Part shown: in pieces, positions 1-6,189 of the stretch | Position numbering within the stretch: position 1 is the first letter of the stretch | Layout: each line of letters begins with the position of its first letter | From: a virus | Length of the DNA: 6,189 bases | IMG/VR virus record: IMGVR_UViG_3300045988_001100 | Span: 1 to 6,189 of that record | Reading direction: 5' to 3' (one strand) | The notes under the pieces: generated by a model | Seen by the model: the letters and a program-made list of their open reading frames with translations, nothing else | The model's database searches: none | What the model was told of the DNA's origin: nothing | Made by a program: the position numbers and the translations under genes

Positions 1-55
1 ACCAACCTCCAATATAATGACAATGGTTTCCCATGTATTCAGGGGCTTTAATACC
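1..55. repeat. Terminal direct repeat, copy 1 (identical to 6135..6189); assembly overlap marking a circular 6,134-nt genome
   Basis: accaacctccaatataatgacaatggtttcccatgtattcaggggctttaatacc occurs at both window ends with 55/55 identity. The repeat lies inside an uninterrupted coding frame (VP1), which fits circular closure rather than a biological terminal repeat. Confidence 0.95.
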
Positions 56-1132
56 AAACTGGGCGGCCATCTGATCCGAATAATCCTTACTAGAGAATTG
101 TATTACTTCCTTCCAACGCTGGAGGTATTCAGTTGCACGGATTGAGAGGGCAGAAAGATTAGAATTAAGAAAAGCATTACGAGCATTAGAAGAATTCTGG
201 TTGGTGACAGTAAGATTAGGAGTACCCTTATCCTGCTTTATTAAGCCATAATAAGGAGCAGATCGAGCAGAATAAACAACTAGACTATTAGGCTCATCAG
301 ATGGAGAGTAAAAAGACGGCAAAGCAGCTACCGAACCATATTGAGAATTAGGGAGTATACCCATAAAGTAGTCTTTCGAATAATTAGCATAACGAAGTTT
401 CAACATATCGGCAGCAAGAGTAATGGGAGAATTTCCAGTCCAATAGTCTACATTATATGCATATGCTAGATGTTTTTCCCATTGAGAATTTGAAAAAGCG
501 TCATAATAAATTTTTTGATACGTAAGAAGAGGAAGGATATTAACAGTTTGAGGCGTATCGAAGACCAATGGATTAACACCGTCTGACAGATTGTCAAGAC
601 CTAAATACTTCTGAGTGATGGCAGCTTTAGCAGTATTACCAGTTCCAACCATAGAACCATAACCAAGCATATCAAGCAGCTTACAAGAACCATAAACTAA
701 CGGCAAACCAGCATCATCACGGGTATTAGTCTGATCATTAGCATTCGCCGCCTGCAAGTAAGAACTTATATGAGACTGTTGAACATAAGGAACTTGAGCA
801 AGTTGAGTAGTGTTCTCATTGTAACTAGCGGCAGAAGTCATATAATCGGACATCTGAGTAAACGCCTGAGGAAGAGCACGAGAAATCAAGCGTAACGGCA
901 CAGCATAAAAGTCATAATACTCTTTAATACGAGTATAAGCAGCCGTATTAACGGGAACAGTACGGGTAAACCAATCAGAGGAAATACGGTATTTATTACC
1001 GGGGATAGCAATCTGCCAATAGACGGGCAGAATTTCACCAACTTTCGCCGTAAACAACTTTTTACTAGACAGGTCAAAGGAAGAGCGATGAACGGCAACT
1101 TTCGCTCGGTCTAGCGGATTAAAATCACTCAT
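1..1132 (-). CDS. VP1: Major capsid protein (Microviridae VP1 / F family), N-terminal 377 codons; continues through the circular junction into 6134..5521
   Basis: ATG at 1132..1130, preceded in frame by TAA at 1141..1139. I scanned every + strand triplet from 2-4 to 896-898 in this phase (starts 2,5,8...) and translated 1132 down to ~775 directly; neither pass shows a minus-strand stop (no tta/cta/tca). Translation: MSDFNPLDRAKVAVHRSSFDLSSKKLFTAKVGEILPVYWQIAIPGNKYRISSDWFTRTVPVNTAAYTRIKEYYDFYAVPLRLIS ... LPLLTYQKIYYDAFSNSQWE ... LKLRYANYSKDYFMGILPNSQYG ... LSIRATEYLQRWKEVIQFSSKDYSDQMAAQFGIKAPEYMGNHCHYIGGW. These are the conserved blocks of microvirus major capsid proteins. The ORF is absent from the supplied track because it is open at the window edge. 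Confidence 0.95.
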   Translation of the reverse strand, partial: MSDFNPLDRAKVAVHRSSFDLSSKKLFTAKVGEILPVYWQIAIPGNKYRISSDWFTRTVPVNTAAYTRIKEYYDFYAVPLRLISRALPQAFTQMSDYMTSAASYNENTTQLAQVPYVQQSHISSYLQAANANDQTNTRDDAGLPLVYGSCKLLDMLGYGSMVGTGNTAKAAITQKYLGLDNLSDGVNPLVFDTPQTVNILPLLTYQKIYYDAFSNSQWEKHLAYAYNVDYWTGNSPITLAADMLKLRYANYSKDYFMGILPNSQYGSVAALPSFYSPSDEPNSLVVYSARSAPYYGLIKQDKGTPNLTVTNQNSSNARNAFLNSNLSALSIRATEYLQRWKEVIQFSSKDYSDQMAAQFGIKAPEYMGNHCHYIGGW

Positions 1133-1139
1133 TAATAAT

Positions 1140-1155
1140 TAATTTAATTAAATTA
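1140..1155. repeat. 16-nt perfect AT-only palindrome TAATTTAATTAAATTA at the VP4 stop / VP1 start junction
   Basis: Bases 1140..1155 are self-complementary. The palindrome overlaps the VP4 TAA (1153-1155) and fills most of the 20-nt VP4-VP1 spacer. Low-complexity AT sequence, so chance is plausible. Confidence 0.5.
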
Positions 1156-2982
1156 GACCATACGGTTAAATATATTATTAGCGTCATTTAGCTTCTTATG
1201 TTTAATCATATCACGGCAGAACTTCGATGCACGGTTATAAAGACACCTTTGTAAGTCGTCGCACAAATCGTTGTAATTTGCAGGTTGCGAGGCTTTAAAG
1301 GATGGTCCGACCAGACGAGAAAGAGCTGGGGAAAGTAATAATTTTCGGGGGTCATCAAAGTATAAAACGGTTGGTTTGATTCCGGCCATAACATCTCGAA
1401 TAGTGTAGTCGGAAAAGGTTCCGTCTTCTTCCTCTTTAACAATCGACCTTTCACATCCTGAGGCTGGTACATAAAAATATCGCAATAAAGGGAATTCACA
1501 TGTTTCTTGTATTCGCAACGAATCACACATTCGTACATAGTCCGCTTTCTTTTCATAGTCTATACCTGTTTTAATGATAAAATTAATACGGGCGGCATAA
1601 GGAGACAAATCATCACCGATGCCAGGGAGATGCCAATTGCGGAGAAACTTAGCGACATAAAGGAACAGCCGATATAGCTTATTAATAAAATATTCAACAT
1701 CGACATCGCTAGAACTGTTAACGAACCTAGTAAGGCACCTAGCATTATGTAATAAAATCTTATCATCATCAGTTAATATATGATTTAAAGTTATGTATTT
1801 ATAATAAGCACGCACGATAGACAAGATAGAATCACTATCATAATCTATGATACCGAAGCGTGCGATTCTTTTCGGCGCTGTTCCAACAGCACTAATAACT
1901 CTATATATCGCAACAGAATCATCATTGCGAGCTCCTGAAAATCTGGGGAGTAAGGAACGGATATACGATAAGGGGGGAGTCGAGTTGACAACGATGCCAT
2001 TAAAGTTATACTCTCGTCCATTAATGACTGAATCGATTTTCGTTTCAATTTGCGCATAGACATCTTCACCTTCATCGAATGTCTCACCTTTTTCAAAGAA
2101 TCCAAGAGAGGCTCTGGACCGGGGTTTAAACGAGCGGCATGATCGATAAAGAGAGGGAGCAGAAGCCAAGCTGTTAACGTACGACGCAACGTACGATGAA
2201 CATCCACCGTTGGAACGTTGGATATCTGAACGACCGAGCTTCCAACTTTTACTATGACACTCTCGAAGGACATCGGCGATTTCCTTCGAGTTGAAGAATA
2301 GTAACAAATGGAAATGCGGGCGGAAATGGACTGGGCCATATTCTCCCACAGCGTAAAAAGATATCTTTTCATTGGTATATCTATCTAAATGTCTACGTAA
2401 TCGTTTAATATAATTCTGAACATCTACGTAATTCAGGTAAGGGATAAGGTTATTACCGTATTTACGGGAAAGCTCTCCATCCTTACCGTAAGGTGTAGCG
2501 GACTGCGTCTTACCAATAAAGGAACGGATAGCATCCATAGAAAGAAACCAATTCTCTCTAATCGGCTCATATTGACCTGTCTCACGATTATACGGTACTG
2601 TACCTTGTACTTGTGTAAAGTATATATGCTGCAATCGCTGAGGATCAGTGGTGCAAAACTTAGACACCTGGACATAAGCGTGTTTCTCATAACCATGAAC
2701 AACACCGGAATCACTTAAAACATCATCGTATTCAGAATAGTATACTTCACAATTGAATAGAGGAATGTGTTCATTATCATAGGTGAGCGTAACAAACCAA
2801 CACTGTTCGAAGGCACTTCCAGCGGTCTTCACACGCATGGACGCCTTTTGAGCTCGCTTATGGATACAGTAGTCACATTGACCGCAATCTACAGCGATAC
2901 GCTTACCGGTATATTTGTTGGTAATAAATGAACGATGCTGACAATGGTCAACAGCTTTAAGCAATTCCGGCGAATATTTCAT
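1153..2982 (-). CDS. VP4: Replication initiation protein (HUH rolling-circle endonuclease, microvirus VP4 / phiX174 gene A-like), unusually long (609-612 aa)
   Basis: Single long ORF. N-terminal Cys cluster HCQH...CGQCDYC. Motif I is FVTLTY (2779..2796). The KRLRR...SFYAVGEYGP block leads into motif II, RPHFHLLLF (HFH at 2308..2316). Motif III is the two-tyrosine YVASY (2179..2193; compare YVAKY in phiX174 A). The track start at 2991 is TTG, overlapping the upstream TGA as TTGA; the first ATG is at 2982 (MKYSPELL). Either start is possible. Confidence 0.95.
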   Translation of the reverse strand: MKYSPELLKAVDHCQHRSFITNKYTGKRIAVDCGQCDYCIHKRAQKASMRVKTAGSAFEQCWFVTLTYDNEHIPLFNCEVYYSEYDDVLSDSGVVHGYEKHAYVQVSKFCTTDPQRLQHIYFTQVQGTVPYNRETGQYEPIRENWFLSMDAIRSFIGKTQSATPYGKDGELSRKYGNNLIPYLNYVDVQNYIKRLRRHLDRYTNEKISFYAVGEYGPVHFRPHFHLLLFFNSKEIADVLRECHSKSWKLGRSDIQRSNGGCSSYVASYVNSLASAPSLYRSCRSFKPRSRASLGFFEKGETFDEGEDVYAQIETKIDSVINGREYNFNGIVVNSTPPLSYIRSLLPRFSGARNDDSVAIYRVISAVGTAPKRIARFGIIDYDSDSILSIVRAYYKYITLNHILTDDDKILLHNARCLTRFVNSSSDVDVEYFINKLYRLFLYVAKFLRNWHLPGIGDDLSPYAARINFIIKTGIDYEKKADYVRMCDSLRIQETCEFPLLRYFYVPASGCERSIVKEEEDGTFSDYTIRDVMAGIKPTVLYFDDPRKLLLSPALSRLVGPSFKASQPANYNDLCDDLQRCLYNRASKFCRDMIKHKKLNDANNIFNRMV

Positions 2983-2987
2983 AAGTA

Positions 2988-3293
2988 TCAACGCTTATCT
3001 ATTACCTGTCGACGATTACGTGAACAGAATGAAACATGAATAAATGTCGGATATATAATAAGCTGGTCAAATGGCGAAACATTATCAGAAAAAAAATGAA
3101 TCTCTTCAAGCAACTTATTAAACGTAGTAGAACCAAAAGGCTTAATATCAACAGCTTCACCTACAAGATGCTGAGAATTCGGAGCACCATTGCAAGCTTT
3201 ATTCTGCTCAGGAGTACGTCTGGCACTAGTTACAGAAAAATGAACATTAGAATACAACAAGTACTCAAGAAAATGCATAAGAGTATAATTCAT
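2988..3293 (-). CDS. Peptidase M15-like (Peptidase_M15_3 / LAS-type zinc peptidase) small protein; putative peptidoglycan hydrolase
   Basis: The 101-aa ORF contains TSARRTPEQNKACNGAPNSQHLVGEAVDI, which matches the family signature SGYR-x4-N-x3-GG-x3-S-x-H-x2-G-x-A-x-D. It also has a C-terminal FIHVSF in place of the usual F-V-H-V-D. Putative zinc ligands are H42 (3168-3170), D49 (3147-3149) and H86 (3036-3038). No signal peptide. The start ATG overlaps the upstream micro-ORF stop (ATGA). Confidence 0.8.
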   Translation of the reverse strand: MNYTLMHFLEYLLYSNVHFSVTSARRTPEQNKACNGAPNSQHLVGEAVDIKPFGSTTFNKLLEEIHFFSDNVSPFDQLIIYPTFIHVSFCSRNRRQVIDKR

Positions 3294-3373
3294 AGTCCAA
3301 TAGCATTAAGAATGTAACCTAAAGCAGCAGAAACAGCGCCAATAACAATTTTCCAGATATTACTACTTTTCAT
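3290..3373 (-). CDS. 27-aa micro-ORF encoding a single transmembrane helix (MKSSNIWKIVIGAVSAALGYILNAIGL); holin-like / small membrane peptide candidate
   Basis: ATG at 3373. Its TGA stop overlaps the peptidase ATG (ATGA at 3290-3293). It has a charged N-terminus followed by a ~20-residue hydrophobic stretch. Both other sense frames contain stops across 3294-3362, so this is the only coding option for an otherwise empty 69-nt spacer. The upstream part of the 74-aa track ORF (3374-3514) looks like a +1-frame artefact of the 66-aa gene. Confidence 0.4.
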   Translation of the reverse strand: MKSSNIWKIVIGAVSAALGYILNAIGL

Positions 3374-3563
3374 TGTCTTGAGATTTAAAATAAACAAAAT
3401 CACTTTCTTCTTTAATCGAATCCACAATAATGATAAAGCCCAACGAAGACATTCGCTCAGAATAACTTCCAAGACCATCGAGAGAATTGACAATATAAGG
3501 CGGAACAACATCACAACCAGTAGATTTTCCTTTAACTGAAATAATAAATTTCTGCATAATCAT
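3363..3563 (-). CDS. Hypothetical protein, 66 aa (MIMQKFIISVKGKSTGCDVVPPYIVNSLDGLGSYSERMSSLGFIIIVDSIKEESDFVYFKSQDNEK)
   Basis: Globular-looking composition, in contrast to the Leu-rich overlapping frame. ATGs at 3563 and 3557; the 82-aa track version starts at a TTG (3611). TAG stop at 3363-3365. No family recognised by eye. Confidence 0.55.
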   Translation of the reverse strand: MIMQKFIISVKGKSTGCDVVPPYIVNSLDGLGSYSERMSSLGFIIIVDSIKEESDFVYFKSQDNEK

Positions 3564-3608
3564 AATCTTTTTTAATGTTAATAATACTGAGTTAGCTTCT
3601 ACAGAGGA

Positions 3609-3640
3609 CAAAGGAAGATATTATTTTTTATATATACAAG
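3609..3640 (-). promoter_or_regulatory. Candidate Bacteroidetes-type promoter for the small-ORF / peptidase / VP4 block
   Basis: The sense strand reads CTTG (3640-3637), then 20 nt of AT-rich spacer, then TTCCTTTG (3616-3609). This approximates the Bacteroides -33 TTTG / -7 TAnnTTTG consensus with one mismatch in each box, about 45 nt upstream of the ATG at 3563. Pattern match only. Confidence 0.25.
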
Positions 3641-3651
3641 ATTTCTACGGA

Positions 3652-3660
3652 TTTTTTTTT
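3652..3660. repeat. T9 (sense strand A9) homopolymer flanked by a TACGG direct repeat
   Basis: ctacgg-a-ttttttttt-ag-tacgg at 3645-3667. The tract is non-coding. Confidence 0.9.
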
Positions 3661-3706
3661 AGTACGGTCTTGTGTGAGTTCGACGTTTATGGACAAGAGA
3701 GGAGAG

Positions 3707-3729
3707 AAACTGAGAGGATAACTCAGTTT
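3707..3729 (-). terminator. Hairpin (8-bp stem AAACTGAG / CTCAGTTT, 7-nt loop) followed on the sense strand by a T/C-rich run; possible terminator of the VP1-VP3-VP2 transcript
   Basis: Perfect inverted repeat 3707-3714 / 3722-3729. The sense strand continues TTTCTCTCCTCTCTTG. The stem is AT-rich and the U-tract is imperfect. Confidence 0.3.
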
Positions 3730-3750
3730 TGCGTTCGCATCGAACTAGGG

Positions 3751-3757
3751 GCTTCGC
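3751..3757 (-). other. GCGAAGC heptamer on the sense (virion) strand: sequence of the hyperstable DNA mini-hairpin
   Basis: The + strand reads gcttcgc at 3751-3757, so the sense strand reads GCGAAGC. A 5-bp/3-nt-loop hairpin GTTCG-cat-CGAAC lies next to it at 3733-3745. Confidence 0.6.
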
Positions 3758-3796
3758 TTGAATAACAAAGTGGATGTATACAAGGTGTATAGGCAC

Positions 3797-3818
3797 GGCA
3801 GGTCAGGTAGAACCTGCC
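3797..3818 (-). other. Hairpin, 7-bp GC-rich stem GGCAGGT / ACCTGCC with 8-nt loop; alternative 5-bp CAGGT / ACCTG pairing within it
   Basis: Perfect inverted repeat 3797-3803 / 3812-3818. ACCTG is duplicated on the sense strand, which allows two registers. Confidence 0.65.
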
Positions 3819-3847
3819 TTTGCGCACCTACGTGCTAAAATACCGAA

Positions 3848-3878
3848 GCGGAACGCTTCTCTAAGGAAGTCGCTCCGC
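3848..3878 (-). other. Strongest hairpin of the region: 12-bp stem with one bulge, 6-nt loop; competes with a 6-bp triloop hairpin at 3845-3859
   Basis: On the sense strand GCGGAGCG-A-CTTC [CTTAGA] GAAG-CGTTCCGC pairs. One position is a G.T(U) wobble on the sense strand, which becomes an A.C mismatch on the + strand. The segment 3848-3859 can instead fold as GAAGCG-TTC-CGCTTC (3845-3859). Confidence 0.7.
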
Positions 3879-3904
3879 TCCATTTTATACCAGGCCTTAC
3901 GCAG

Positions 3905-3933
3905 GCGGCGGGTGTATATCGCTCAAGCGCCGC
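3905..3933 (-). other. Hairpin with 6-bp all-GC stem (GCGGCG / CGCCGC) and 17-nt loop carrying GATATACACC; alternative ATCGC / GCGAT stem at 3918-3936
   Basis: Inverted repeat 3905-3910 / 3928-3933. On the sense strand the loop reads CTTGAGCGATATACACC. Confidence 0.6.
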
Positions 3934-3955
3934 GATGGGCTTTTAGTCCTAAAGG

Positions 3956-5071
3956 TTATTTTCGACCAATACTATTGCCAATACCTTGAAAAATACGAGA
4001 GCCGTAATCTATAGCGTTACGCAATTCATAAGAATCAACATCCTTCTGCTTCTGTTTGGAAGACCATTTATAATAATCACGCAAAGCCTTATCTTTAGAA
4101 TACTCTATATTCTTCAATACATTCATATTCTTAGAATCCCAAAGAGAAGACAAACCACGAGCACGATTAGACTGGATATTAGCATAGATCAAAGAATCAG
4201 CGGTAGACTCAGCAATCTTATTGTTAATACGAATACCATTCGTTTCAGCGGCAGTTTTCACGGCCTGAGCCATCTGATTTTTATACTGAGCTTCAGAAAG
4301 AGCACCTTGGGCATATAGGTTAGCAAGAGTCTGACCTTTAATAAAGAGGTCGGCTTGTTGCTGTTCATCCAGATACTTATTCAAGACCTGTTGAGCCTGA
4401 GAATCTAAAAGAATCTGAGCTTCCTGGGCAGAAGTAAGACGACCAGCAAACTCCATATTCTTTAACTCCTGATACTCTTTAGATTGATCTAGGAGAGCGG
4501 AACGACGACCAGTAGAAGCATTCCAATAACCAGACTGACCAATACCGATATTACGATAATTCGTGTTACCAAGGATCTCCTGCATGCGATAAGGTGTAAG
4601 AACGGCATTCTGTTCGGCATTCATCATAGCAGCACGAGCCTGAGCCATAGAAGCAAGAGAGGTGCCGACATCAGAGAAATCAGGGCGGAAGGCTTGAAGA
4701 GAAGGCATACCAGCGGCTTGAGCAGCAGAACCTCCAGAAGCGGGGGACCTAGAAACACCAGCACCAGCGGAAGAACCAATAAACGGATTCAAACCACGAG
4801 CGACCATAGCATTGGGAGAATTGTAAGAATTATTCATACCCCACATCTTCTCTTGCCAATCACGCTGAATCTGAGCTTGCTCGGCATTAAACGCATTATT
4901 CTCACGATTAATGTCAATACTGGTCTGATTAGTCTTATTCTGCGAAGATGCGCCAATAGCATTACCTGCAAGTGAAGCGCCAGCAGCGATAATTCCTCCA
5001 AGAACAAGCGGAGCAATATGTTTTTCGGAGTGCCCCATTAAGGGGCTTTCTCCGATATCATAGAACCTCAT
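3956..5071 (-). CDS. VP2: Minor capsid / DNA pilot protein (microvirus VP2, functional analogue of phiX174 H)
   Basis: The 371-aa ORF has an N-terminal Gly/Ala-rich hydrophobic segment (PLVLGGIIAAGASLAGNAIGASS) and the block RDWQEKMWGMNNSYNSPNAMVARGLNPF, which resembles the conserved ...NSP.aqm.r...AGLNP region of VP2 proteins. It also has a long Gln/Ala-rich predicted helical region. The ATG at 5071 overlaps the upstream TGA (ATGA); an alternative Met lies at 5038. Confidence 0.85.
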   Translation of the reverse strand: MRFYDIGESPLMGHSEKHIAPLVLGGIIAAGASLAGNAIGASSQNKTNQTSIDINRENNAFNAEQAQIQRDWQEKMWGMNNSYNSPNAMVARGLNPFIGSSAGAGVSRSPASGGSAAQAAGMPSLQAFRPDFSDVGTSLASMAQARAAMMNAEQNAVLTPYRMQEILGNTNYRNIGIGQSGYWNASTGRRSALLDQSKEYQELKNMEFAGRLTSAQEAQILLDSQAQQVLNKYLDEQQQADLFIKGQTLANLYAQGALSEAQYKNQMAQAVKTAAETNGIRINNKIAESTADSLIYANIQSNRARGLSSLWDSKNMNVLKNIEYSKDKALRDYYKWSSKQKQKDVDSYELRNAIDYGSRIFQGIGNSIGRK

Positions 5072-5508
5072 TGAGCAGATGAGTCAGGTGCGGACGAAGA
5101 CTCGGGCTCTGACTTTTGCTCTGCCAACATAGATTCAGCGAACCTGGATAATTCAGAATGTTCAGAAGCCAATTGACGCAATACAGCCTGACGTTCAGAC
5201 ATTGTTTGACAATGACGAGAAATAACACAATTGAAACGTTCTTCATCAGTCATATCATCCATTAAGGTAGACTGCGTAGGATGCATCTGGGCTAGGATGT
5301 TATTCACATTCATATCACCAAGAAGGCGACGGTATTTTTCCTGATTCAAAAGAATCTGAGTCATATCGCATTGAATCAAATCACCGTCAGGAGTTTCATC
5401 ATACATAACAGAGTCATACGAGGAAGCTACATAGCACGGATTACCTTCAACTAATTGAGGTTGATAAGTATCAGGAATAAACTCAGGAGTAAAATCAAAT
5501 TTTCTCAT
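5068..5508 (-). CDS. 146-aa acidic protein between VP1 and VP2; putative internal scaffolding protein (VP3-like)
   Basis: Clean ORF starting 12 nt after the VP1 stop and ending in an ATGA overlap with VP2. It is acidic with a Ser/Glu-rich tail (EQKSEPESSSAPDSSAQ). Its size and position match scaffold genes of non-phiX microviruses. The function is inferred from synteny only. Confidence 0.8.
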   Translation of the reverse strand: MRKFDFTPEFIPDTYQPQLVEGNPCYVASSYDSVMYDETPDGDLIQCDMTQILLNQEKYRRLLGDMNVNNILAQMHPTQSTLMDDMTDEERFNCVISRHCQTMSERQAVLRQLASEHSELSRFAESMLAEQKSEPESSSAPDSSAQ

Positions 5509-5520
5509 AACGACACATAA

Positions 5521-6189
5521 TTAATAAGGTAAACCATTTCTGTCCAAATTCTGAACCGCATATACTTGGAAATTAACATTACACAACAGTTGGTCAAAAG
5601 CAACGGAACAATTCGTAGCGTCAATCTGCGGAACGAAAATAGAATTCAATTGCTGAGGACGAACTTTCATAGACTGATAAGACCAAGCGCCGGAACCAGT
5701 TAACACTTGGTAGCCATTCAAGGGGGCAGCCCAAGCTTGATACGCAGCACCATTACGGAAACCAGCGTGGACGGTATCAATATTAGATTTCCATTGCCAA
5801 TAACGGAGATTATATCCAAGAGCACCAGAGGTCTTAAGACCAGGATTATTTTGAAGATTCAAAGCAGGAACAACTTGCATACCAAGTTGATCGAATGCAG
5901 GTTGAGGGAAGTCAGATATAGCGGTTACGGTCAATTGAGGATTCTGGCCAGTAAGATTCCAATCCAGCATAGGGACAGCATGATAAACACACATAATAAC
6001 CTGATGTTCAGCACCACAATCATAAGTAATAGTATGACCGGAGTTACTAGAAACACCTTTACCGGCAATAGAAGCCTGCGAAGAATCAGTATCAAGGTTA
6101 GTATTAACTACCTCATTAATATTGATTACACTAGACCAACCTCCAATATAATGACAATGGTTTCCCATGTATTCAGGGGCTTTAATACC
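5521..6189 (-). CDS. VP1: Major capsid protein, C-terminal part of the same gene as 1..1132 (6135..6189 duplicates 1..55); whole gene 1,746 nt = 581 aa
   Basis: Track ORF 5521..6168 (MGNHCHYIGGWSSVININEVVNT...NLDRNGLPY, TAA at 5521-5523) is in phase with the 1..1132 frame once 6135 is equated with base 1: 1132 + 614 = 1746 nt, divisible by 3. The track's Met is internal residue 367, not a start. Confidence 0.95.
   Translation of the reverse strand, partial: GIKAPEYMGNHCHYIGGWSSVININEVVNTNLDTDSSQASIAGKGVSSNSGHTITYDCGAEHQVIMCVYHAVPMLDWNLTGQNPQLTVTAISDFPQPAFDQLGMQVVPALNLQNNPGLKTSGALGYNLRYWQWKSNIDTVHAGFRNGAAYQAWAAPLNGYQVLTGSGAWSYQSMKVRPQQLNSIFVPQIDATNCSVAFDQLLCNVNFQVYAVQNLDRNGLPY
6135..6189. repeat. 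Terminal direct repeat, copy 2 (identical to 1..55)
   Basis: Exact 55-nt match to the window start. 55 is a common maximal k-mer in de Bruijn assemblers, which is consistent with a circular contig overlap. Confidence 0.95.

Follow-up and report, generated by a model that had tools for sequence, protein, structure and literature searches.

The DNA analyzed here, a virus-derived stretch of 6,189 nucleotides (nt) corresponding to positions 1 to 6,189 of IMG/VR record IMGVR_UViG_3300045988_001100 (hereafter termed the window), carries a 101-amino-acid (aa) peptidase of the M15A type, whose gene is overlapped at its start by that of a ~73-aa membrane protein which is in turn overprinted on another open reading frame (ORF). 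We consider it probable, although far from certain, that these two genes form a lysis cassette in a gut microvirus, comprising a holin-like membrane protein and a signal-less mini-endolysin. The elements of this proposal that the analysis shows directly are the family, fold, and ligand conservation of the peptidase, the purifying selection acting on both genes, their overlap, the dual coding of the membrane gene region, and the dispensability of the enzyme among relatives. The features concerned are as follows.

3290..3511, minus strand: ~73-aa membrane protein gene, a +1 frame overprint on a 64-aa ORF; candidate holin-like lysis effector
3290..3373, minus strand: C-terminal 27 codons of the membrane gene (MKSSNIWKIVIGAVSAALGYILNAIGL), its most conserved helix, beginning at a conserved internal ATG
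2988..3293, minus strand: 101-aa compact M15A / PF08291 zinc peptidase (candidate mini-endolysin), stop codon at 2988-2990; identified through Pfam, PHROG, AlphaFold2, Foldseek, and the ratio of nonsynonymous to synonymous substitution (dN/dS, or omega)
3216..3227, minus strand: SARR motif, peptidase residues 23-26; S23 and R26 conserved, A24 and R25 replacing the family Gly and Tyr/Phe
3147..3176, minus strand: SQHLVGEAVD motif, residues 40-49; first two predicted zinc ligands, H42 and D49
3030..3044, minus strand: FIHVS motif, residues 84-88; third predicted zinc ligand, H86, followed by Ser88

Family, fold, and predicted zinc ligands of the peptidase

A first-pass annotation, made from the letters of the window alone, had recognized a peptidase M15-type cell wall hydrolase module in a single-stranded DNA (ssDNA) microvirus, an assignment which is borne out by a Pfam profile match, by the AlphaFold2 fold, and by structural matches. 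The peptidase scored 36.5 bits (E = 5.9e-9) against Pfam PF08291 (Peptidase_M15_3), for which the curated cutoff is 23.2, in a match spanning profile positions 43 to 107 of 108, with the N-terminal ~40% of the domain being absent, and it was also matched by PHROG 894, annotated as "endolysin" (E = 1.9e-14). A single-sequence search of the PDB returned nothing useful; a profile derived from 142 homologs reached 1LBU, the zinc D-Ala-D-Ala carboxypeptidase of Streptomyces albus G (E = 1.4e-12), as well as Hedgehog N-domains, in which H-I-H-C-S of Sonic hedgehog was aligned with F-I-H-V-S of the window protein. The AlphaFold2 model is compact (mean predicted local distance difference test score of 97.5 and predicted template modeling score of 0.88), and its N-terminus forms a packed amphipathic helix. 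When this model was used as the query in Foldseek, the best PDB match was again 1LBU (probability 1.0, template modeling score 0.62, root mean square deviation 3.0 A), and the top solved-structure matches, i.e., 1LBU, VanY, ShhN, LdcB, the RB49 L-Ala-D-Glu peptidase, and LysB4, are all LAS enzymes. Among predicted viral structures, 49 matched at E ≤ 1e-3, all of which were of the M15A type.

The zinc-ligand pattern H-x6-D...H that had been read from the sequence also stood, as the motifs lie where they had been placed and are near-invariant in homologs. Across 126 diverged subfamily representatives (clustered at 50% identity and mostly 130-150 aa in length), to which the conservation counts given here refer, H42 was retained in 125, D49 in all 126, and H86 in 118, while S23 and the substrate-binding R26 were present in 122 and 123, respectively. 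R26, H42, and D49 were aligned to R138, H154, and D161 of 1LBU, and the two latter residues also to His77 and Asp84 of the endolysin of Burkholderia phage ST79. H86, which is located in the C-terminal beta-strand (residues 85-88) of the AlphaFold2 model, was aligned to the last ligand His of Hedgehog and to that of the ST79 sequence W-V-H-I-G. Replacement of H42, D49, and H86 by Ala in silico lowered the Pfam score by 14 bits, to below the cutoff, and the dN/dS of the peptidase (0.19) is indicative of purifying selection. Homology to 1LBU and to the ST79 endolysin, therefore, implies that H42, D49, and H86 would bind zinc and that the protein would cleave peptidoglycan.

Three features had been singled out as unusual in this protein, the first being HVS in place of HVD at the last ligand His. 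This holds with respect to the broad Pfam profile, which mildly prefers Asp (an in silico S88D substitution added 1.0 bit, and the Pfam alignment then reached position 108 of 108), but not within the subfamily to which the peptidase belongs, where residue 88 is Ser in 102 of the 126 representatives, Gly in 15, and never Asp. H-V-S is also what Siara (a Stenotrophomonas phage) and BS-TP2 (a Bacteroides phage) have in their annotated endolysins, and the active ST79 endolysin, which was aligned to the window protein at E = 6e-10, carries Gly two residues after its last ligand His (W-V-H-I-G). Because of these subfamily counts, the tailed-phage HVS sequences, and the activity of an enzyme with Gly at this position, HVS is no defect, but rather the normal state for the subfamily.

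The second feature, SARR where the family has SGYR, is a real departure, as restoring G-Y in silico added 6.1 bits to the Pfam score. Of the 46 short forms of the peptidase, 29 carry Arg or Lys at position 25, where Tyr (65) or Phe (23) predominates in the 93 long forms; in full-length proteins, this residue may be packed onto the N-terminal segment, to become exposed once that segment is lost.

The third feature, the absence of about 40 N-terminal residues, is likewise real, as is evident from the Pfam coverage, which begins at position 43, and from an in-frame stop five codons upstream of the peptidase ATG, which excludes both a mis-called start and a longer product. Short forms begin at the helix preceding the S-x-x-R strand, and peptidases in other microvirus lineages measure 138-178 aa. 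The truncation is specific to the lineage represented by the window and, like the S-A-R-R sequence, to the short forms. A longer, 124-aa peptidase, as annotated in three GenBank relatives, was considered and rejected, since its extension corresponds to the membrane protein region read in the wrong frame, a frame which is interrupted by stops in the window and in other relatives. In the three records in question (PP511332, PP511396, and PP511322, i.e., Dulem viruses 238, 226, and 243), the 124-aa coding sequence, labeled "peptidase" or "hypothetical protein," probably starts 21 codons early.

The overprinted membrane protein gene

Directly upstream of the peptidase gene, in the +1 frame, lies an ORF whose TGA stop codon overlaps the peptidase ATG as ATGA (…GGACTATGAAT…), a coupling which was found in nearly all loci of the lineage. 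Its last 27 codons specify a single hydrophobic helix with three small-xxx-small motifs and a mean hydropathy of 2.0, and this C-terminal ORF was intact in 72 of 72 evaluable peptidase-bearing loci, among which one has a GTG start and one a small junction duplication. In locus L045, a short duplication of the membrane gene/peptidase junction is present ~40 nt upstream of the peptidase ATG (...NSIGL and a stop, then MIILCNAIGL and a stop), with both ORFs intact.

Substitutions in the C-terminal membrane frame are most frequent at the third codon position (0.291), followed by the first (0.126) and the second (0.059), and the dN/dS of the C-terminal helix is 0.08-0.11, compared to 1.0-6.8 in the other frames; in the comparison of the 27 codons, the value of 0.11 contrasts with 1.0 and 3.9 in the two alternative frames. 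It was initially considered that these 27 aa represent the whole membrane product; analysis of the overlap with the upstream ORF led to its revision to ~73 aa. Of the 86 unique sequences, 84 share the upstream ATG (position 3511), and none contains a stop between it and MKSSN; the internal start codon (position 3373) is ATG in 84 sequences and GTG in 2, and could give rise to a separate 27-aa product.

The ORF on which the membrane gene is overprinted is the following.

3363..3557, minus strand: conserved 64-aa acidic ORF (MQKFIISVK...), which heads the tightly packed gene run leading into the replication gene rep

It has an isoelectric point of 4.8, is conserved in relatives as a "hypothetical protein," and matched no Pfam or PHROG entry. 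Selection was compared over an ungapped 268-nt block, with dN/dS in overlapping genes being semi-quantitative and internal contrasts being relied upon; pS denotes the proportion of synonymous differences.

64-aa ORF before the overlap: pS 0.424, omega 0.125
64-aa ORF within the overlap: pS 0.207, omega 0.35
Membrane frame upstream of its ATG: omega 2.6
Membrane frame within the overlap: omega 0.60
Third frame within the overlap: omega 2.4

The pS of the 64-aa ORF is thus halved within the overlap (0.207 versus 0.42-0.45), and this drop, coupled with the omega contrasts to the internal controls, constitutes a signature of dual coding, the C-terminal two-thirds of the 64-aa ORF being dual-coding with the membrane protein. 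The codon-position and dN/dS contrasts with the internal controls led to rejection of the possibility that conservation of the membrane frame merely reflects the overlapping ORF or an element acting at the nucleotide level.

The likely ~73-aa product contains 9 Lys plus Arg and 2 Asp plus Glu residues, and its AlphaFold2 model consists of two helices (residues 2-48 and 51-71); this two-helix, strongly basic protein is predicted to insert in the membrane. More distant relatives possess 75-78-aa versions. In the lineage represented by loci L008 and L010, the peptidase is preceded by an unrelated 58-66-aa membrane analogue, which overlaps an upstream annotated ORF and yields a weak match to holin PHROG 443 (E = 0.012). 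The pairing of a peptidase with a small membrane ORF in other microvirus lineages is to be read in light of the many chance hydrophobic ORFs which AT-rich alternative frames yield.

No named function for the window's membrane protein was retrieved from Pfam, PHROG, or the other databases searched. Gene callers predict the 73- to 74-aa ORF in 214 database clusters, in which it carries neither a Pfam domain nor a meaningful name, and the gene was annotated in none of the 10 GenBank records of relatives that were opened, three of which extend the peptidase through the region instead. Fusion of the membrane helix and the peptidase by frameshifting, which would create a signal-anchor endolysin, is unlikely because no slippery heptamer is found in the final codons ahead of the ATGA and because ATGA is the usual coupling signal.

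Relatives that lack the peptidase

A presence/absence survey of related microvirus genomes found the peptidase to be variably present. A scan of viral contigs with the core of the membrane helix retrieved, apart from a single unrelated match in a tailed phage, contigs of mostly ~6 kb (range 5.4-9.4 kb), and the peptidase follows in 118 of 129 distinct combinations of peptide and downstream sequence. Nine microvirus genomes (IMG/VR contigs L075, L106, L111, L121, L129, L132, L144, L153, and L159) keep the membrane gene and contain no M15 match in any of the six frames, in a search where positive controls gave E values of 1e-43 to 1e-45. The membrane protein in these genomes usually terminates in ...GYILSAIGV, and Rep follows ~55 nt after the membrane gene.

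In a tree of Rep, the nine genomes are scattered within the peptidase-bearing radiation, their nearest peptidase-bearing neighbors being 83-94% identical, and all outgroups carry the enzyme. This distribution suggests that the peptidase was lost, either repeatedly or with the loss possibly being spread by recombination. The peptidase is, therefore, an optional module, while the membrane protein is kept.

Proposed function of the two-gene unit

No signal or membrane segment was detected in the peptidase, whose highest 17-residue hydropathy is 1.0. The protein would, accordingly, be expected to fold and accumulate in the cytoplasm, from where a membrane lesion would be needed for it to reach the wall. 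The membrane protein and the peptidase would be co-produced by termination-reinitiation at the ATGA, the TGA/ATG overlap suggesting that the two are probably made together. Late in infection, the membrane protein would damage the inner membrane in a holin-like manner, upon which the peptidase would reach the wall, cut peptide stems or cross-links, and speed the release of virions. The zinc binding, the peptidoglycan cleavage, the hole formation, and the assignment to lysis rather than to entry are all inferred. Of the roles which the first-pass annotation had offered for the peptidase, namely, an endolysin, a virion-associated entry enzyme, or a degenerate or repurposed domain, the first is favored by the gene context.

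Several points weigh against a holin-endolysin function. The window's membrane protein showed no similarity to any holin family searched (Pfam, PHROG, and the holins of BS-TP2 and Siara) and is devoid of the charged C-terminal tail typical of holins. No spanin-like gene was recognized in the 6.1-kb genome, although no dedicated search for one was made, and a Gram-negative host is probable. Lysis can, as the peptidase-less relatives show, proceed without the enzyme. With regard to the peptidase itself, a conserved segment of about 35-45 N-terminal residues (F-x-L-x-E-F...G-I-x-N) is absent when compared to full-length relatives, and the columns that hold the catalytic Glu in Hedgehog and the ST79 endolysin and, in 1LBU, the initial His of H-x-H are occupied by Tyr81 and Phe84.

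The strongest rival explanation is that the membrane protein lyses the cell on its own, whether through a block in cell wall synthesis, as is the case for phiX174 E, or through a collapse of the membrane potential that frees autolysins, with the peptidase acting as a non-essential accelerator or host-range accessory. In phiX174, the membrane protein E is specified by the +1 frame of gene D; it inhibits MraY and causes lysis without a muralytic enzyme. Like E, the window's membrane protein is small and overprinted in the +1 frame of another gene; furthermore, it is conserved more strongly than the enzyme (omega of 0.08-0.11 versus 0.19), and nine relatives keep its gene without any M15 peptidase. 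It shares no similarity with E, however, and a cytoplasmic, signal-less peptidase could serve no purpose in a cell whose membrane remained intact up to the burst. The tight ATGA coupling in essentially all peptidase-bearing genomes of the lineage argues for joint action of the two proteins and, the enzyme being signal-less, for a membrane protein which at least permeabilizes the membrane. Lysis by the membrane protein alone is, consequently, regarded as unlikely, though it deserves to be kept in view.

It is improbable that the peptidase instead serves as a virion-associated entry enzyme, opening a local hole in the peptidoglycan during genome delivery. M15A domains do occur in tail-hub, Gp5-like, and tape-measure proteins of tailed phages, and the hydrolase Gp7 of microvirus Ebor was found in trace amounts in virions (PMC11980548); against this, the window's gene lies outside the capsid-scaffold-pilot block, coupled to the membrane protein gene and beside rep, the nearest free-standing tailed-phage homologs of the peptidase are found in lysis cassettes, close relatives live without the peptidase, and neither a packaging signal nor a fusion to a structural protein was seen.

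The most doubtful alternative is a degenerate or repurposed domain that has kept its fold and lost hydrolysis, serving, for example, as a peptidoglycan-binding or regulatory module, as might be argued from the missing N-terminal ~40 residues, from an S-A-R-R that lies ~6 bits below the consensus, and from the Tyr and Phe found where Hedgehog, ST79, and 1LBU carry their catalytic Glu or His; yet the three ligands and the substrate Arg are kept under purifying selection, the AlphaFold2 model is compact and very confident, and a dead gene of 300 nt would be unlikely to be maintained, across >1400 clusters, in a genome of ~6 kb. Within the subfamily, residues 81 and 84 are Tyr/Phe in 90 proteins and Glu/Trp in 29, covarying near-perfectly as two sub-types. 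Because Tyr/Phe also predominates in proteins of full length (60 of 93), Tyr81/Phe84 is not a decay product of the window's lineage. Given that the Glu column is that of the catalytic Glu of Hedgehog, the Tyr/Phe sub-type may use a different general base.

Returning to the proposed holin-endolysin pair, a more specific scenario is advanced tentatively, with somewhat less than an even prospect of proving correct: the 73-aa protein would represent the core lysis effector, a minimal holin of a very abundant gut lineage that arose through overprinting in the manner of phiX174 E, and to which the 101-aa M15A endolysin was recruited through translational coupling, only to be discarded later in some genomes.

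Genome context and the noncoding element downstream of the pilot gene

An exact 55-nt terminal direct repeat (positions 1-55 and 6135-6189) identifies the 6,189-nt window as a complete circular microvirus genome of 6,134 nt, in which the major capsid gene crosses the junction of the circle and appears split when the 55-nt repeat is retained. All genes lie on the minus strand, in the order major capsid, a 146-aa protein, DNA pilot, a noncoding gap, the 64-aa ORF, the peptidase, and Rep, whose ATG is located 5 nt downstream of the peptidase stop. Two further genes were delineated as follows.

5071-3956, minus strand: DNA pilot protein
1153..2982, minus strand: Rep, replication initiator (PF23343 and PHROG 942)

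The same gene order is evident in deposited gut microviruses, including MG945572 (from dog feces), whose peptidase is 93% identical to that of the window, OP549867, and many "Dulem" and "bajarodmic" viruses, which originate from lemur and rodent feces. With respect to the host, no close relative of the peptidase was found among 185,579 species genomes, the peptide pattern gave chance matches only, in proteins of Dehalococcoidia and Chloroflexota, and scans for Bacteroidota-type and sigma-70-type promoters remained at chance level. An assignment to the Alpavirinae with a Bacteroidales host would draw solely on genome size, gene order, fecal sources, and the literature.

The ~283 nt that follow the pilot stop codon (3954-3672, gene-sense strand) are conserved in 158 of the 185 microvirus loci that were retrieved, at a nucleotide identity of 76-86%. 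This element (3672-3954) is richer in G+C and can be folded into 11 helices with 67 pairs, 99.2% of cells being paired. Compensatory double changes were observed at 13 pairs, compared to 5.6 ± 1.4 in shuffled alignments (0 of 500 reached the observed value) and 0-4 in slid controls, and alternations between G-C and G-U indicate that it is the gene-sense strand which folds. Rfam yielded no match to the window or to the element; the latter could represent a complementary-strand origin, as in phiX174 and G4, or else a structured RNA or a terminator cluster. Some relatives (e.g., L075, L159, and L117) contain an extra hairpin of ~35 nt (CCTAGATCTATTAGTAATGGATCTAGG) inside the element (alignment columns ~196-230), which is absent in the window.

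Previous descriptions, occurrence, and significance

The peptidase as such is not new, having been documented in gut microviruses since 2012. In 11 genomes of human-associated Alpavirinae and Gokushovirinae, Roux et al. (2012, PLoS One, PMC3394797) found peptidases of the PF08291 family, for which they proposed an endolysin role and inferred horizontal acquisition. Kirchberger et al. (2022, PMC9239249) placed peptidases in the small set of microvirus accessory genes that are associated with lysis, in an analysis from which, as stated there, overprinted genes were omitted. In 2025, purified Gp7 of microvirus Ebor was shown by zymogram to degrade peptidoglycan, which its authors describe as the first such verification for an ssDNA phage (PMC11980548). 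The earlier framing of such genes as little known is, therefore, outdated in view of the 2012, 2022, and 2025 publications. No functional test of this microvirus M15 form was found in the literature searched.

The peptidase is present in 1418 clusters at 90% identity, the best 120 of which comprise proteins of 97-103 aa, mostly on ~6-kb contigs, and many GenBank records of relatives carry the annotation "peptidase." A full-length, 134-aa homolog of the Tyr/Phe type (P0162) is encoded at positions 3001-3405 of contig L208 (JGI metagenome 3300000228), a PRD1-like contig with double jelly-roll capsid P3 and PRD1_DD domains, where small ORFs adjoin the peptidase gene on either side, overlapping by 4 nt. 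Its presence on such a contig suggests that the Tyr/Phe sub-type circulates among very different phage groups.

Microvirus lysis outside the phiX174 group is a largely open question, and phages of this kind are among the most abundant in mammalian guts. What is new is not the peptidase, which has figured in the literature for over a decade, but the overprinted membrane gene coupled to it, and the resulting two-gene unit of ~530 nt (73-aa membrane protein plus 101-aa peptidase) makes the lysis question directly testable, with the enzyme-less relatives serving as natural "knockouts." Should it prove active, the 101-aa enzyme would rank with the smallest muralytic enzymes of the LAS fold and would show which parts of the M15A domain are dispensable; if the scenario of a minimal overprinted holin is correct, the pair would constitute the first holin-endolysin system defined in the Microviridae and one of the smallest known. 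The case illustrates that overprinted genes escape standard microvirus annotation, which at times follows the wrong frame.

Comparison with known systems

The gut Alpavirinae and Gokushovirinae peptidases of Roux et al. (PMC3394797) resemble that of the window in their PF08291 assignment, virus type, proposed endolysin function following horizontal transfer, and accessory distribution, and adjacent "unknown" ORFs were already noted in that study; the truncated 101-aa form, the S-A-R-R sequence, and a peptidase-coupled, overprinted membrane gene were not described there. Burkholderia phage ST79 encodes an endolysin designated "peptidase M15A" (PMC5025407), which degrades peptidoglycan in zymogram and turbidity assays and whose gene is located between those for a holin and a spanin. 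It belongs to PF08291, was modeled on 1LBU, and shares 30% identity with the window protein in an alignment (E = 6e-10) that matches the His/Asp/His positions, and it, too, has no Asp after the last His; it differs in its length of 149 aa, including an N-terminal segment, in its S-G-Y-R sequence, and in belonging to the Glu/Trp rather than the Tyr/Phe sub-type. 1LBU (MEROPS M15A), the best solved-structure match by both profile and fold, is a secreted bacterial enzyme of 213 aa with an extra N-terminal domain and H-x-H where the window protein has F-x-H.

Two further microvirus systems invite comparison with the membrane gene. The E gene of phiX174 likewise specifies a small membrane protein in the +1 frame of another microvirus gene; sequence similarity is absent, with no PHROG or Pfam match pointing to homology, and the window's gene is, unlike that for E, coupled to a peptidase gene. 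Microvirus Ebor combines the verified peptidoglycan hydrolase Gp7 with a small predicted membrane protein, Gp1 (45 aa), yet it belongs to the "Tainavirinae," infects an alphaproteobacterial host, and possesses a Gp7 of 146 aa, and its two genes were not reported as being coupled (PMC11980548).

Among tailed phages, the lysis cassette of Siara is ordered as endolysin, two holin/antiholin genes, and i- and o-spanin. The holins of Siara and BS-TP2 differ from the window's membrane protein in being 104-149 aa in length and not overprinted, and their alignment scores with it lie at the shuffle mean. In its organization, nonetheless, Bacteroides phage BS-TP2 parallels the window, since it encodes a free-standing M15A endolysin whose ATG is overlapped by the stop codon of the holin gene by 4 nt, which is the same junction that links the membrane protein and peptidase genes described here.

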